64,000 nucleotides of DNA from Escherichia coli O127:H6 str. E2348/69. GTDB taxonomy: Bacteria > Pseudomonadota > Gammaproteobacteria > Enterobacterales > Enterobacteriaceae. The DNA lies in the NCBI RefSeq assembly GCF_000026545.1, contig NC_011601.1; one strand, written 5' to 3'. Positions 33,001 through 45,000 of this stretch are shown one piece after another. Every line of letters starts with the position of its first letter. Within the stretch, counting starts at the first letter, position 1. The position numbers are program-made.

Positions 33001-36000
33001 ATAGAATATGCCGCATTAATTTGCATTTCCGGGCTGACGTGAACAACGGTTTTTAATCCGAGTTGGCTGAATTTATAAGCACCATAAACGGCCAGAGGGT
33101 TTGAATTTCCGGCAGCAAAAAAGAAAATAGTATCGCAATTAGCAAGTAGTTTGAGAATGGACTCAAGTACTTCGGCATTAAAAAATTGCGTTGATTGTAT
33201 TAAATCTTCGGCCTGTTTTTTTAATAAAAATGTGGCCAGCGACGTTATATCGGTAAAATCGGTATTATCAGGATAGCTATTGTCAGGATTAATGACTTCT
33301 TTTGCTAATGCAATTTTTAAATGGTAATAACCCTGATAACCTAATTTCTTACAGGTGCGTACGATAGTCGCTTCACTGGCATGGCTTTTTTCTGATAGTT
33401 CAGTGACACTATAGTTCACGACTTCATGTGCGTGGCTAAGAATATAGTCAGCGACCTTTTTTTCCGCCTGATGCAGTGTAGGGTAATTGCTTTGAATCAG
33501 ACTTTTTACGGTTATGTTATTCATAATTAGTAAATTTCATTCTGACAGAAAGTGCTGATTATAACATAGTTTTCAGGCGTGGATAGGTATGAAAAAATGA
33601 AGGTGTGCAGTGAACGTAATGATTAACAGACCGGTTAATTTTCATGAATTACGTCAACTGCACAAAAATAATTTAAACGGGCGCTCTAATTAAAGCAAGA
33701 CTTATATTTTTATCATTGTATTGTCAATTAAATACAAATCGTGTCATTAATTGCGGGTTTCTTAAATATTCTATGCACCACTGACAGGCTTTGCCCATAC
33801 CATCGGAACGAGCGGCAAGAAATAACTTGGTGGCGTGTTTATGTTCGCGCATTGGCTTTTTAAGCAATTTACCGCTGTTCAATAACGGCAATGCCAGATG
33901 ATGTGGAATATAACCAATACCGACGTTTTGTTCTATTAAGGCGATTGCCGTAGCGAAGTCAGGAACAAAAATGGGTTTTTGTCCTTCCAACAACCAGGCT
34001 TGCATCGGGGGGAAGTTAACGGAGGTATCGCGGATACAAACCGCTGGATAATGACGCAATTCACTGTTTTCTAATGGATGCCGCTTCGCTGCCAGTGGGT
34101 GGAGTGGGCTGACGACAAAATCCCATTCCATTTGTCCGACCGGTTCGCTAATGATGCCTTCACTGCTTGGTACTGCATGAGGAGCACCGTAGACCAGATC
34201 AGCACGCTTACTGTACAGCGCATCCCAGCAGCCGTTGTATACCTCAAGATCTACCGTCAGTGTTGTTGATGTGAATTGCCGTTCAAAATCTCGAATAAAT
34301 GCCACCAGCAAATTACCAGGAATAATATTGTTTACCGCAATTGTCAGTTCACGCTCAATACCATCGTGAATCAGCACTGTGTTGCGCTTTAATGCTTCCA
34401 GATCGCCAAGAATAGTTTTGCTATGTTCGATGAAGTAACTTCCCGCTGGCGATAATTCAATATAGCGTCCCTTACGAATGAACAGTTCAACGCCCAGGCT
34501 CTCTTCCGCTTTCTTGATAGTGTAACTGATGGCGGAAGGGACTTTATTTAACTGCTCGGCTGCGGTGGTAATGCTCTGGTGTCTGGCGACCAGATGAATA
34601 ACACGAAGCGTTTCGTCTGAGATGAACATAAGGCTCCCTGGTCAGTGGTAAAGTGGCTGAATCTCTCCAGATTCAGCCGTAATCATTGCCTGAGTATACC
34701 CAGGAATTAGCGGTGTTGACTTGCCCGACTGAGAATCGCATACGCGATACATGCCACCAGAATCGAGTCTACCGAAGGGATCGTCGTCAGGGTGAATAAG
34801 CCTTTTACGGTCATAAAGCCAACCGCTGCGCCTATGATCCATGCTGCGAATGTCAGCACTTTAATCTGTGACTCCTGGGCTAACACTGACTCTTGATAGC
34901 CATTACGGCGATAAAGGAAAAAGTCAGCGATATAAATTCCGGCAACGGGTGGCGTGGCGATACCCAGGAACAGCAGAAACGGAATAAACCACGCCATAAT
35001 ATCCATACTGCCTACGATGGCGGAAAGGATACCCAGCGCCACGGTAATCTGCCATTTGGGAAAGCGGGTAAGCAGTGTGGAAACCACCAGCGTGCCCTGG
35101 AACATATTGCCCGCGTTACCGGTGACGCAGGCGAAAATCAACAACAGCGCCGCAGGCAGAACCGCACCGAATACCGCCATCGCACCCAGTAAAGATCCCT
35201 GACCACTAATGGCGCTCGGCGTTGCACCCGCCCAGTAGAGCAGAGGGTAGGCAACCAGAAACGTCACGCCTGCGGCAATCAGCGCATGTTTGCGGTTATG
35301 CACAAAACTACCGAAATCAGGCAGTGTGGCAACCAGCACAATAATGGTGCCAACAACGGTGGAAACGGCGACACCTGTATTCATCTCCACAATCGCCGCT
35401 GGTACTGCCACTTCGGTATGGGTTGCCACATAGAGGATGTAACACAGCACCAGCGCGATAACCGGCACGGCAACCTGGGCAATTTTTCCCAGAACGGTAA
35501 AGCCAAATGCCGTAGAGGCGACAAAAATGACACAGCCAGCCGCCACTAACAGTGCCAGTGGAACTTCCAGTCCATGTTGAGCCAGTAAGTCATGTACCGA
35601 ATGACCAAACATATTGGCGGTAACGGCAATCCAGCCGAACAGACTTATCGCCATCAAAATGTTAATGGCGATGGCCCCTTTTTCGCCAAACGAATATTTC
35701 ACAATGCCATACGTTGGCAGGCGGGCTTTTTCTCCCACGCTAATGGTGATGGCTGAAAGTAAGGTCAGAATGACGCCGCCTAACAATACGACGCTAATTA
35801 AACTGCTGCTGGAAAGTTGATTGCCGAGGCTTGAGGATGACAACAGTACAGGTGTGACGGCAATACCCAGCAAAATCATGGCAATACGCAATCCTGATGC
35901 CGTATTCAGATTCTCTTCTTTTTTACGCATAGTATGTTCCCTTTATAAATGCGCGTTACACAGTATGAAAATGCCCGGTGTATTTGCGCCAGCTACCCAG

Positions 36001-42000: not shown

Positions 42001-45000
42001 TCCTGACGTTGCGCCAAATTGCATGACCTGTTCTGCACAGGATGCGATTGTCATTGCCGATGTGCTCCCAACCAGTTGTGCGAGTAACTGGCAAATCGGT
42101 TCTGAAAAATGTCCCTGAAGCGCACGCTCCAGATAATGACGACTGATATCCGTGGTGTTGTGCGCATGTTGATCAATTGCCTGCTGCAACCGGTATTGAT
42201 GATCGGCAAGTGGTGCAGGGAGTTGCCATAACCAGAGCGCTGCCAGATAGCCCAACAAATAGTCATCTCCATCGGGCGTTAAGCCTTTACCAAAGCCGAT
42301 CAGTTGTGGCACCTGGCGTGCCAGCGCATCTGGATGTTCCATAATTGCTAATCCCTGGTGCGTGAGGCTATCCGGCAGGTGCAATGTGCTTTGAACGTTA
42401 TGTTCCAGACAAAATAAAAGCCGTTGCGATGCCATCGTTGGGTAGTGCTGGAAAACCAAAGGGAATGCCTCAAGTGTCAGCATTCTCCCCACAAATGGCG
42501 ACTGCCAGAGCGTTGCGTTATCGAGCGCCACACAAAATCGAGGTGTCCGCAGTAAGCCTGGGGTTAACTGAATGGGATCTGAATGGGCAATCTCTCTTCG
42601 CCAGTCCCAACATTCAGGTAGCCAGACTCTGGCAGCATCAGGGAGATTCAGATACGTTTGCGCACACAACAGAGTGATGAATGTTCCCGCGTCTGAATAC
42701 AGATTTACCGCATGTTTAAAAGCGCTATGCAGACGTAAATCTTGCGTTTCATTCTGCGGGAAAAGATATCCCAACGACGATGCGCAAAGCGTAACCTGTA
42801 CCATCGGCGTTAGCCTTCCAGACCTGCAATAATGGCTTTGGAATCAGTAACCCAACCGAAAATGGCACCTTGTGCTTTGATCATCTCGAGGGCGTATTTC
42901 TGGAATTCCGGGAAATAGGAGCCGACACAATCTTCCGGGATAATGCATTCATAGCCACGATCATTTGCTTCGCGCACGGTGGTGGTTACGCAAACTTCGG
43001 TTGTTACACCACAAACTATCAGCGTCTTGATACCGTGGTTTTGCAAAATCAGATGTAAGTCGGTTTGATAAAACGCGCCTTTGCCAGGCTTATCAATCAC
43101 CGGTTCGCCTGCCACCGGGTACAGTTCAGGAATGATGTCATGACCTGCTTCACCTCTGACCAGAATGCGTCCCATCGGTCCTGGTTCACCAATAAAGGTT
43201 TTTCCGCCGCGCGTCAGTTTGGCTGGCGGGCAGTCGCTTAAGTCTGCACGATGGCCTTCACGAATATGAATAACCATAATTCCTTTTTGACGTGCGGCTG
43301 CCAGCACCTCTGTACATGGTGCGATAGCCGTGCGTACCCGTGAAACATCATTGCCCAGTGCCTCACCGAAGCCCCCTGCTTCGACAAAGTCACGCTGCAT
43401 GTCGATCATGACCAGTGCAGTTGTGCGCGGATCAAAAGGTAATTCAAAGGGTTGAGCCTGAAAAATGGATTGCGTCATGGTAAATCTCCTGTCTGATGTT
43501 TAAACGATCCAGTTGTTCTGAGAACGAGTATTCAGGAGAAAAGCGGCACAAAACAGGAAAAAAGTTTGCCGCACAGCAACGAAATTTTTGCATTCAGCAG
43601 GTGGTGTGATGACGAATGTGAAGGGAGTCAAAGAGTGGCATACAGCAACAAATTTTTTGATGCTGTATGGTTTTGAGATTAAAAAAATCGTTGAAATTGT
43701 GTGAGCTTAATCATCAGATTTAGCGACTATGGCGTTACTTTTTAACACCATACTGTGTAAACCATTCCAACATTCGCTGCCAGCCGTCTTTCGCAGACTC
43801 GGCATGATAGCTCGGACGATAATCGGCGTTGAATGCATGCCCGGCATCCGGGTAGACGATAATCTCTGCTTTCGCATTAGCAGCCCGCAGCGCCTGGCGC
43901 ATAGTTTCAACGCTCTCCTGCGGAATGCTGTTATCCTGGCCGCCATATAAGCCGAGAACCGGCGCGTTAAGATCGGTTGCGATATCAACAGGTTGTTTCG
44001 GTGAATTCAGCGACTTATCGCCCGTCAGTTTGCCGTACCACGCCACTGCGGCTTTTAGCTGTGGATTATGCGCGGCATACAGCCAGGTGATACGTCCACC
44101 CCAGCAGAATCCGGTGATCATTAAACGATGAACATCGCCGCCGTTGCGGGAAGCCCAACTGGCGACATGATCGAGATCGGCCAGCACCTGCGAGTCAGGC
44201 ACTTTTGCTACCAGACCGCTAAGCAACGTGGGGATATCGGCAAAATCATTCGGATCGCCTTCGCGGAAGTAAAGTTCAGGTGCGATAGCCAGATACCCCT
44301 CCAGCGCCAGACGGCGACAAATGTCGCGGATATGTTCATGCACGCCAAAAATTTCCTGCACTACAATGACCACTGGCAGTGGGCCATCGCTTTGCTTTGG
44401 TCTGGCATGGTAAGCAGGCATGTTATCCCCTTGTGAAGGGATAGAGGTGAAGCCCGCCACAATCGCGTCGTCCGGAGTCTGAACGATGGTCGAAGCGAGA
44501 GGCGATGCAGCAGGTGCAAATCCAGATTGTTGTGTTGTTGCCATGGTATTCTCCGTACCCTTATAAAAATGTTGCGCAATGTTAACTATAGTCAGCATGC
44601 AACAAATCACATTGCCTGAATCGGCTCATCTTTTATGCAGTCCTGCAGAATGAAGAGTGATTTATGTGATTTGCATCACTTTTGGCGGGTAAATTTATGC
44701 AACGCATTTTCGTCATGGTGATGAGTATCACGAAAAAATGTTAAACCCTTCGGTAAAGTGTCTTTTTGCTTCTTCTGACTAAACCGATTCACAGAGGAGT
44801 TGTATATGTCCAAGTCTGATGTTTTTCATCTCGACCTCACTAAAAACGATTTACAAGGGGCTACGCTTGCCATCGTCCCTGGCGACCCGGATCGTGTGGA
44901 AAAGATCGCCGCGCTGATGGATAAGCCGGTTAAGCTGGCATCTCACCGCGAATTCACCACCTGGCGTGCAGAGCTGGATGGTAAACCTGTTATCGTCTGC

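Follow-up and report, generated by a model that had tools for sequence, protein, structure and literature searches.

In the allantoin pathway of Escherichia coli, AllFGH was characterised in 2024 as an oxamate carbamoyltransferase, which interconverts oxalurate + phosphate and carbamoyl phosphate + oxamate and requires the AllH subunit; the carbamate kinase AllK follows (PMC11326118). A paralogous set of DUF2877, FdrA-like, DUF1116 and carbamate kinase proteins is encoded by yahE-yahF-yahG-yahI of E. coli K-12, where the partner genes code for YahD, an ankyrin protein, and YahJ, an amidohydrolase. In Herbaspirillum triuret is degraded by the purely hydrolytic route TrtA-TrtB-BiuH-AtzF, and six positions separate the triuret hydrolase TrtA from the biuret hydrolase BiuH: F35, N41, A134, E160, Y187 and I205 (PMC7948467). 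The AtzD-AtzEG-AtzH-AtzF system of Pseudomonas sp. ADP captures two unstable compounds, carboxybiuret and allophanate, which would otherwise break down to biuret and urea as dead ends (PMC6219798). 1-Carboxybiuret is the common product of AtzD and TrtA (PMC7948467, PMC6219798).

The window analysed here is a stretch of 64,000 nucleotides from E. coli O127:H6 strain E2348/69 (contig NC_011601.1), to which all positions refer. The locus under study forms one half of the tkt1 island, a segment of about 16 kb between metE and ysgA. This island, also called GR29, was previously catalogued in B2 E. coli (PMC3349570, PMC12928451), and the E2348/69 copy has the features described there: the metE-ysgA site, tkt1, a PTS gene and carbamate-kinase-like genes. 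Within the tkt1 island we detected no allantoin (all) genes, no rut genes and no rutA-like ring-opening oxygenase. A preliminary description of the locus had reported eight tightly spaced, co-directional genes. Their positions, their minus-strand orientation and their spacing were confirmed (intergenic distances in operon order 5, 94, -4 with an ATGA overlap, -8, 16, 25 and 77 bp), but a plus-strand insertion element, ISEc13, splits the DUF1116 gene, and the E2348/69 copy consists of seven intact genes and one pseudogene. An undisrupted copy is present in strain A37 (locus L002). NCBIfam and Pfam profile searches bore out all eight family assignments.

The first gene of the operon (42810..43478, minus strand) codes for an isochorismatase-like cysteine hydrolase of 222 aa; Pfam PF00857 is recorded on its homologues. 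Its best PDB match was the Herbaspirillum triuret hydrolase TrtA (6XIX, 269 bits), followed by biuret hydrolases (228-232 bits) and RutB (106 bits). The catalytic triad is conserved (D26/K130/C163), the ligand-binding residues E74, K133 and Q203 correspond to Glu72, Lys132 and Gln202 of TrtA, and all ligand-contacting residues are the same as in TrtA. All six positions that distinguish TrtA from BiuH are of the TrtA type (F37, N43, A135, E161, Y188, I206). The signature reads FNAEYI in the E. coli protein and FNAEYI or FNSEYI in 62 other TrtA-signature hydrolases of related loci, whereas the BiuH controls have YYSDTV. Identity as BiuH was rejected on the TrtA-type residues and on the score of the NCBIfam BiuH model (273 bits against a cut-off of 370), and identity as RutB on the score of the RutB model (114 bits, cut-off 378) and the lack of rut genes nearby. 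The protein is 58% identical to TrtA and 53% to BiuH. In a neighbour-joining tree the hydrolases linked to this gene set form a sister clade to the assayed TrtA enzyme. From its closest match and its residues we read the hydrolase as a TrtA-type amidase acting on a linear ureide and not as a ring-opening enzyme, which speaks against the hydrolytic ring opening suggested in the preliminary description.

The next three genes code for proteins of the DUF2877/AllH, FdrA/AllF and DUF1116/AllG families. The DUF2877 subunit (286 aa, 41944..42804, minus strand) matched the AllH profile PF11392 with 95 bits, and its identity is 33% with AllH, across 110 residues, and 25% with YahE. The FdrA-like subunit (519 aa, 40290..41849, minus strand) scored 498 bits with NCBIfam NF004760 (cut-off 433) and 290 bits with FdrA in the PDB (3DMY), and shows 41% identity to both AllF and YahF. 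The intact DUF1116 protein shows 49% identity with AllG and 46% with YahG; PF06545 is recorded on its orthologues. In intact copies the DUF1116 gene overlaps by 8 bp with the gene of a carbamate kinase (318 aa, 36362..37318, minus strand; TIGR00746 366 bits, cut-off 358; NF009007 378 bits), which is 49% identical to YahI and 39% to AllK. By family assignment, the architecture is that of an AllFGH-type transferase with an adjacent catabolic carbamate kinase. The paralogy to fdrA-ylbE-ylbF-ybcF and to yahEFG-yahI, recognised in the preliminary description, holds with 25-49% identity. The biochemistry of these paralogues had been called poorly defined, which is still true of the yah set but no longer of allFGH (PMC11326118). 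The yah cluster, moreover, lacks a TrtA-like hydrolase, an AH_C protein and an NCS1 permease. Orthology to AllFGH, or a relocated allantoin module, was rejected: the proteins are only 41/49/33% identical to AllF/G/H and have no linked all genes. They belong to a separate, strongly conserved clade, in which the DUF1116 orthologues of several phyla are 61-88% identical.

The DUF1116 gene is interrupted after codon 413 of 474 by ISEc13 (37503..39052, plus strand), an IS4-family element of 1,550 bp with IS50-like ends, whose name is taken from RefSeq. It has the DDE transposase (gene at 37668-39041, plus strand; NF033590, 512 bits), terminal inverted repeats and target-site duplication of that family. 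Its ends (CTGTCTCTT...) are CTGTCTCTTATACACAA / CTGATCAAGAGACAG, and the 8-bp target duplication GCTGCGGT lies at 37495-37502 and 39053-39060. The 5′ fragment of the pseudogene (codons 1-413, 39053..40293, minus strand) aligns with the intact gene of strain A37 (L002:9812-11236) up to the insertion point, and the 3′ fragment (37311..37502, minus strand) holds the last 61 codons. This stretch is near-invariant among orthologues, and its loss should therefore inactivate the protein. The four distal genes are cut off from the start of the operon by ISEc13. Because the element truncates the DUF1116 subunit, the pathway is most likely dead in E2348/69.

AH_C domains presumably use N-carboxy compounds as substrates. 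Downstream of the kinase gene lies a stand-alone allophanate-hydrolase C-terminal domain (AH_C) protein (129 aa, 35956..36345, minus strand; PF21986, 141 bits), which is identical to PDB entry 5C5Z and resembles the C-terminal domains of 4GYR and 4ISS. The earlier AIG2/GGCT-like label was right at the family level, and the Pfam and PDB matches make it more precise. A full allophanate hydrolase (AtzF or DUR1,2) was rejected, as the amidase domain is absent and the protein covers only model positions 472-595 of 600. The two distal genes encode an NCS1-family permease (407 aa, 34707..35930, minus strand), with CodB as its best NCBIfam match (147 bits, cut-off 326), 60 bits for the NCS1 subfamily model and Pfam Transp_cyt_pur on its orthologues, and a PunR/AllS-like LysR-type regulator (301 aa, 33724..34629, minus strand; PunR 287 bits, AllS 215 bits, both under cut-off). 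The non-coding region upstream of the operon (43479..43734, minus strand) contains two similar direct repeats of about 24 bp, read from the sequence at about 43634-43657 and 43566-43589; the repeat was not conserved outside E. coli.

DUF1116 orthologues with the 61-88% identity given above were found in Enterobacterales, Burkholderiales, Neisseriales, Dyella, Vibrionales, Avibacterium, Alphaproteobacteria, Mycobacterium, Nitrospira and others. Neighbourhoods were counted in the 60 orthologous loci whose flanks extend for at least 4 kb on either side. A hydrolase of this clade stood beside the FdrA-DUF1116-carbamate kinase genes in 50/60, in several phyla, a TrtA-signature hydrolase was present in 53/60, and a LysR gene was kept in 30/60. 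A reverse look-up from hydrolase homologues added three further taxa with the same genes in shuffled order. The cluster is genuine and far beyond chance; the same gene set recurs across several phyla. The preliminary description had proposed a comparison of neighbourhoods, and in it the presence of the hydrolase, the small AH_C protein and a permease does follow that of the FdrA set. The merely relocated allantoin module that it had considered is contradicted by the lower identity of the DUF1116 protein to AllG and YahG than to its orthologues.

A cyanuric acid hydrolase (NF052395 538 bits; 582 bits with PDB 6BUM against 327 with barbiturase) takes the place of the TrtA-type hydrolase in K. 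michiganensis and on IncF plasmids from Klebsiella, Raoultella, Enterobacter, Citrobacter and Leclercia, and is followed by the same transferase clade (79% identity). This plasmid-borne relative begins with AtzD, as does the Pseudomonas system. A full-length allophanate hydrolase gene adjoins or lies near the transferase set in three loci (L011, L072, L081). In 16 loci, which come from four phyla, AH_C and the carbamate kinase form a fusion; a single locus (L073) has AH_C fused to the hydrolase, and in L052 and L071 AH_C immediately precedes the hydrolase on its upstream side. Within 10 kb, no DUF2877 gene was detected in the Mycobacterium loci or in a few others, and a urea-transporter-like gene directly follows the set in a Verrucomicrobia metagenome-assembled genome (L047). 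A DNA-level search found an atzF-like sequence in only 3 of 5,426 E. coli genomes.

To our knowledge E. coli has no biuret hydrolase, allophanate hydrolase or urease, and it is typically urease-negative. Carboxybiuret and allophanate are, like oxalurate, N-carbamoyl carboxylates. As the best of the explanations considered we tentatively propose, stopping just short of calling it probable, that the operon serves the catabolism of triuret (carbonyldiurea), or of a linear ureide much like it, with energy conserved via carbamoyl phosphate. All substrates and products, the regiochemistry and the role of the AH_C protein in this scheme are predictions from sequence. The ureide would enter through the NCS1 permease, and the TrtA-type hydrolase would remove a terminal amide, converting triuret to NH3 and 1-carboxybiuret. 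The FdrA/DUF1116/DUF2877 complex would then phosphorolyse the N-carbamoyl bond of carboxybiuret, giving carbamoyl phosphate and allophanate, and would probably act again on allophanate to give carbamoyl phosphate and carbamate. Carbamate kinase would transfer the phosphate to ADP, yielding ATP and carbamate, which would end in NH3 and CO2; the AH_C protein may handle the unstable N-carboxy (carbamate-type) products, and the LysR protein would switch the operon on. Each triuret could thereby yield at most four NH3 and two ATP in total, with no need for biuret hydrolase, allophanate hydrolase or urease. The general scheme of the preliminary description (a ureide is imported and hydrolysed, a carbamoyl group passes to phosphate, and carbamate kinase recovers ATP) is in line with this proposal.

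Compared with AllFGH and AllK, the operon has the same three families followed by a carbamate kinase and presumably the same chemistry, in which an N-carbamoyl amide is phosphorolysed to carbamoyl phosphate and ATP is then formed. It differs in its linkage to a TrtA-type or cyanuric acid hydrolase, AH_C and a permease instead of allantoin genes, and in its predicted substrate, carboxybiuret or allophanate instead of oxalurate. With the Herbaspirillum route it shares the type of entry enzyme, the catalytic and specificity-linked residues and the predicted first product; BiuH, TrtB and the AtzF amidase domain are absent, and the downstream steps would be phosphorolytic and ATP-yielding. Like the Pseudomonas system it would capture carboxybiuret and allophanate before their decay, a problem that arises where the host has neither biuret hydrolase nor urease, but it would use a carbamoyltransferase and a kinase in place of the amidases AtzEG and AtzH.

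The triuret proposal draws on TrtA as the closest match, the six-residue signature, the conservation of the set, the AtzD swap giving the same product, the nearby allophanate hydrolase, the AH_C fusions, the chemistry of AllFGH and the rarity of atzF in E. coli. Other observations fit it less well. Carbamate decays spontaneously, and the scheme in this form does not require AH_C; DUF2877 was undetected in some loci although AllH is needed by the E. coli oxamate enzyme; and the transporter-like gene of L047 would fit urea as a product. A biuret route is an alternative that we consider unlikely: after the same entry step AH_C would act as a carboxybiuret decarboxylase, functionally like TrtB, and the transferase would convert biuret to carbamoyl phosphate and urea, yielding one ATP and two NH3 per triuret, with urea excreted or passed to urease. 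The N-carboxy chemistry attributed to AH_C domains, the position of AH_C upstream of the hydrolase or fused to it, and L047 are consistent with such a route. So is the fact that carboxybiuret loses CO2 spontaneously to give biuret (PMC6219798). Half of the nitrogen would be lost, however, in a typically urease-negative species, and biuret and urea lack the terminal carboxylate borne by the substrates of the characterised paralogue. The 16 AH_C-kinase fusions point to the kinase step rather than a post-hydrolase step, and atzF near the AtzD version suggests an allophanate intermediate.

The sister-clade position of the module-linked hydrolases, with 58% identity to TrtA, means that a different but related substrate is possible. 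The logic would then be the same, with another acyl-urea or ureide as physiological substrate and a deamidated product resembling oxalurate. The slight activity of TrtA itself on formylurea and 1-nitrobiuret, and the heterocycles that are the usual cargo of the NCS1 and NCS2-fold permeases found with the set, agree with this; we nevertheless regard it as improbable, given the match to TrtA at the six specificity-linked positions and all ligand-contacting residues, and the cyanuric acid hydrolase replacement, which points specifically to carboxybiuret. Much less likely is a chance neighbourhood of a triuret/biuret hydrolase and a separate, second oxalurate-degrading AllFGHK set, even though co-located genes in metagenome-assembled genomes of nitrifiers were annotated as oxalurate catabolism (PMC12625717 and supplement). 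E. coli already has allFGHK for oxalurate, to which this set is only 33-49% identical, the tkt1 island holds no allantoin genes, and in E. coli the hydrolase would lead to a dead end at carboxybiuret or biuret. Translational coupling also joins the genes (5-bp gap, 4- and 8-bp overlaps), and they stay together through order shuffling, fusions and the AtzD swap. For GR29, pyrimidine nitrogen scavenging was suggested on the strength of identities of 32% with RutB and 26% with CodB (PMC12928451), with the permease importing cytosine or uracil and a RutB-like hydrolase acting on ureidoacrylate. The RutB score far below the TrtA and BiuH matches, the absence of a rutA-like oxygenase from the island and the TrtA-type signature make this very improbable.

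We found no paper proposing the phosphorolytic triuret pathway. The TrtA-type residue set, the linkage of hydrolase, transferase and kinase, the cyanuric acid hydrolase swap, and the identity of the AH_C protein with its kinase fusions are new here. Triuret arises from urate through oxidation by peroxynitrite in urine, inflamed tissue or bird excreta. It is possible, though somewhat doubtful, that these genes represent a widespread, unrecognised phosphorolytic pathway for triuret and, via AtzD, also for cyanuric acid, in which a new member of the AllFGH family cleaves 1-carboxybiuret and allophanate with phosphate. If so, the stand-alone and kinase-fused AH_C domains would acquire a role, a nitrogen waste compound would yield up to two ATP by substrate-level phosphorylation, and B2 extraintestinal E. 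coli could feed on triuret.

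In the gene annotation of the window, the operon forms part of an accessory island between metE and ysgA, which also carries hxlB, a ptsG-like gene, tkt1 and an RpiR regulator. This is the published 16-kb tkt1 island, GR29. It was found in 1,528 of 5,426 complete E. coli genomes. Among B2 isolates of avian, urinary and meningitis origin, 70-94% were positive for the tkt1 island in published PCR surveys (PMC3349570). The remaining half (28494-33524), with the hxlB-like, ptsG-like PTS IIBC and tkt1 genes on the plus strand and the RpiR regulator gene on the minus strand, has the look of a distinct sugar-phosphate module, and at the junction of the two halves (around 32500-34500) G+C content drops to 0.38-0.44.

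The operon, all of it on the minus strand, encodes a hydrolase of the type of the Herbaspirillum triuret hydrolase TrtA (42810-43478), a DUF2877 protein (41944-42804), an FdrA-like protein (40290-41849), a DUF1116 protein whose gene is in two pieces, a carbamate kinase (36362-37318), a 129-aa protein (35956-36345), an NCS1 permease (34707-35930) and a LysR regulator (33724-34629). NCBIfam, Pfam and PDB matches upheld all eight family assignments of the preliminary description. The FdrA-like protein exceeds the NCBIfam cut-off of its subfamily and the kinase that of the arcC equivalog; the DUF2877 protein matches Pfam AllH, and PF06545, whose present name is AllG, is recorded on the DUF1116 orthologues. 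Compared with the E. coli K-12 paralogues, the FdrA-like protein is 41% identical to both AllF and YahF, the DUF1116 protein 49% to AllG and 46% to YahG, the DUF2877 protein 33% to AllH and 25% to YahE, and the kinase 39% to AllK and 49% to YahI. AllFGH, an oxamate carbamoyltransferase partnered with the carbamate kinase AllK, is the first member of the transferase family to be assigned a function, and that only in 2024 (PMC11326118). When FdrA was aligned with the succinyl-CoA synthetase alpha subunit (PDB), the match ended ahead of the phosphohistidine loop, therefore no mechanistic inference was drawn from it. An mBio paper on DUF1116 gene expression in urinary tract infection was rejected as evidence for the island: the gene studied there is the core gene ylbE.

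The genes of the minus-strand unit lie where the preliminary description had placed them, but an insertion sequence within the DUF1116 gene had been overlooked. Comparison with the intact copy of strain A37 revealed an insert of 1,550 bp (37503-39052) with IS50-like ends and an 8-bp target duplication (GCTGCGGT). The element, named ISEc13 in RefSeq, has an intact transposase gene of the IS4 family, which lies on the plus strand. It breaks the reading frame after codon 413 of 474 and separates the start of the operon from the four distal genes. Because the 61 C-terminal residues that are cut away are nearly invariant in the orthologues, the E2348/69 copy of the operon is very probably non-functional. 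A 10.2-kb query matched 27-30 places in E2348/69 records versus 1-3 in other strains; the surplus presumably consists mostly of further ISEc13 copies, which would suggest multiplication of the element in this lineage.

Among solved structures, the best relatives of the hydrolase are those of Herbaspirillum TrtA (6XIX, 6XJ4 and 6XJE, 269 bits), followed by biuret hydrolases (228-232 bits) and RutB (106 bits). The protein stays below the curated NCBIfam cut-off for the biuret hydrolase BiuH (273 versus 370 bits); it is 58% identical to TrtA and 53% identical to BiuH. The published account of TrtA (PMC7948467) gives its catalytic triad and ligand contacts, together with six positions at which the consensus residues of TrtA and BiuH differ. 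Alignment with TrtA and BiuH references showed that the E. coli hydrolase has the triad (D26, K130, C163) together with E74, K133 and Q203. At all six discriminating positions it carries the TrtA residue (F37, N43, A135, E161, Y188, I206), where the BiuH controls read YYSDTV. In a neighbour-joining tree the module-linked hydrolases group as a clade sister to the one containing the assayed TrtA. On the strength of the scores and residues, triuret is our best guess for the substrate.

The DUF1116 orthologues in the best 120 database matches are 72-88% identical. A scan of one genome per species yielded 582 confirmed DUF1116 relatives, of which the best 80 (61-98% identity) were analysed. These 80 come from Enterobacterales, Burkholderiales, Neisseriales, Dyella, Vibrio/Photobacterium, Avibacterium, Thorsellia and Alphaproteobacteria, and also from Mycobacterium, Nitrospira, Chloroflexi, Acidobacteria and Verrucomicrobia. 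Gene content was counted in the 60 loci flanked by 4 kb or more on each side (own ORF calling and BLAST). The FdrA-like gene was present in 60/60 and the kinase in 57/60; a hydrolase of the E. coli module clade was found in 50, a hydrolase with the TrtA signature in 53, and an AH_C domain, separate or fused, in 50. A search begun from the hydrolase found the same gene set, in changed order, in taxa outside the DUF1116-based set (Shewanella, a Cardiobacteriaceae bacterium and Vibrio metschnikovii). From these counts and gene sets we conclude that the hydrolase and the permease co-vary with the transferase genes, a point that the preliminary description had put forward for neighbourhood comparison, and that the AH_C gene does so too.

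The E. coli oxamate enzyme requires AllH (PMC11326118). An HMM search detected no DUF2877/AllH-like gene within 10 kb in the Mycobacterium loci L048-L065, where ORF calls are crude at high G+C, and none was detected within 10 kb in L009, L017, L021 and L035. The gene may be located elsewhere, be dispensable or have been overlooked by ORF calling. The Avibacterium gallinarum locus (L034, 2084-11800) has two adjoining FdrA-DUF1116 pairs, one of the E. coli module clade (53% and 68% identity) and one more distant (47% and 47%), with a permease of the unannotated ~530-aa family described below between them.

The NCS1 permease is the transporter in 27 of the 60 loci. In 12 others its place is taken by a conserved membrane protein of ~530 aa. 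The ORFs for this protein are L035:12804-14402, L043:5672-7309 and 16 more across the related loci. Neither Pfam nor NCBIfam gave it a match, even at E<=10. The structure predicted for it (pLDDT 85) adopts the UraA/SLC23/SLC26 fold and, judged by this model, these proteins are an unannotated branch of that transporter superfamily. The Nitrospira loci have a BMP-type ABC system. The regulator is LysR-type in 30/60 loci and GntR-type in 7/60. A consensus scan of 33400-43800 for promoters and terminators gave no more sites than shuffled sequence. The sole match of an Rfam search (32000-45000) was a fluoride riboswitch, taken as a chance match as it is sub-threshold and lies within a coding region. 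Upstream of the hydrolase gene, on the minus strand, is a pair of similar direct repeats of ~24 bp (AAAAATTT-GTTGCTGT-; 43566-43589 and 43634-43657). They are present in E. coli copies and absent from other genera, therefore no operator could be defined.

The 129-aa protein, identical to PDB 5C5Z, belongs to Pfam AH_C, the C-terminal domain of allophanate hydrolase; its GGACT match is only weak. In 16 loci AH_C is joined to the C-terminus of the carbamate kinase (12 Mycobacterium, 1 Acidobacteria, 1 Verrucomicrobia, 2 Rhodobacterales), and in one Cupriavidus locus to the N-terminus of the hydrolase. Because of these fusions we regard AH_C as an integral part of the pathway. Action on N-carboxycarbamate has been proposed for the domain and has been disputed; we infer no more than that it handles or shields N-carboxy intermediates here. 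In the metagenome-assembled verrucomicrobial locus L047, a distant urea-transporter-family gene (3657-4580; 116 bits, below the cut-off) lies directly 3' of the kinase/AH_C fusion gene.

A variant of the module was found in Klebsiella michiganensis (L011), where the TrtA-type hydrolase is replaced by the cyanuric acid hydrolase AtzD. AtzD and an NCS2 permease stand directly upstream of DUF2877-FdrA-DUF1116-kinase-LysR, and the DUF1116 protein is 79% identical to its E. coli counterpart. The AtzD-type block also occurs on conjugative IncF plasmids of Klebsiella, Raoultella, Enterobacter, Citrobacter and Leclercia, bordered by IS26 and in some copies with the allophanate hydrolase gene atzF nearby. 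On the K. pneumoniae plasmid NZ_CP141858.1 (L085) it comprises cyanuric acid hydrolase, NCS2 permease and the FdrA-type set (3054-13133), preceded by a 411-aa protein lacking a Pfam match. Barbiturase, which would imply ureidomalonate, was rejected as the plasmid ring-opening enzyme (327 bits versus 582 to cyanuric acid hydrolase). In two betaproteobacterial metagenome-assembled genomes a full-length allophanate hydrolase adjoins the FdrA-DUF1116 pair.

Cyanuric acid hydrolase and TrtA share the product 1-carboxybiuret (PMC7948467, PMC6219798). It is mainly this convergence of the two versions that led us to place carboxybiuret, and then allophanate, as substrates of the transferase. Both break down spontaneously, to biuret and urea, which are dead ends for hosts lacking biuret hydrolase or urease (PMC6219798). 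E. coli is normally urease-negative, and a DNA-level search found an atzF-like match in only 3 of 5,426 E. coli genomes. Carboxybiuret and allophanate are N-carbamoyl compounds with a terminal carboxylate, like N-carbamoyl-oxamate, which AllFGH cleaves in a phosphate-dependent reaction (PMC11326118). Because the paralogue acts with phosphate on a comparable compound, we propose that two successive phosphorolyses would occur, of carboxybiuret and then of allophanate, each followed by carbamate kinase. The outline in the preliminary description (ureide import, hydrolysis, carbamoyl transfer and ATP formation by the kinase) was largely right, and can now be made specific.

Other readings have to be weighed. 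A variant of the same pathway proceeding through biuret and urea is rather unlikely. Equally improbable is a different but related ureide as substrate. That two separate pathways are neighbours by chance, as was read in nitrifier genomes (PMC12625717), appears quite improbable beside the gene fusions and the co-variation across the 60 loci. Least probable is the Rut-like pyrimidine route suggested for GR29 (PMC12928451), RutB matching the hydrolase much more weakly than TrtA does.

A full-text search, which reached few subscription journals, found no paper beyond the nitrifier study connecting triuret, biuret or cyanuric acid to the island or to FdrA-type transferases; an earlier description may exist elsewhere. 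The proposed phosphorolytic pathway, if true, would add a second specificity to the AllFGH transferase family, provide, beside the hydrolytic pathways for triuret, biuret and cyanurate, an alternative that yields energy, and account for trtA/biuH beside 'allFGHK' in comammox and archaeal nitrifiers. It would also open a way into the debate over the AH_C domain. The AtzD version on plasmids is of importance for how Enterobacteriaceae turn over cyanuric acid. For the tkt1 island, the substrate prediction makes one half amenable to a simple growth and enzyme experiment, and hints that host urate oxidation may be linked metabolically to extraintestinal E. coli.
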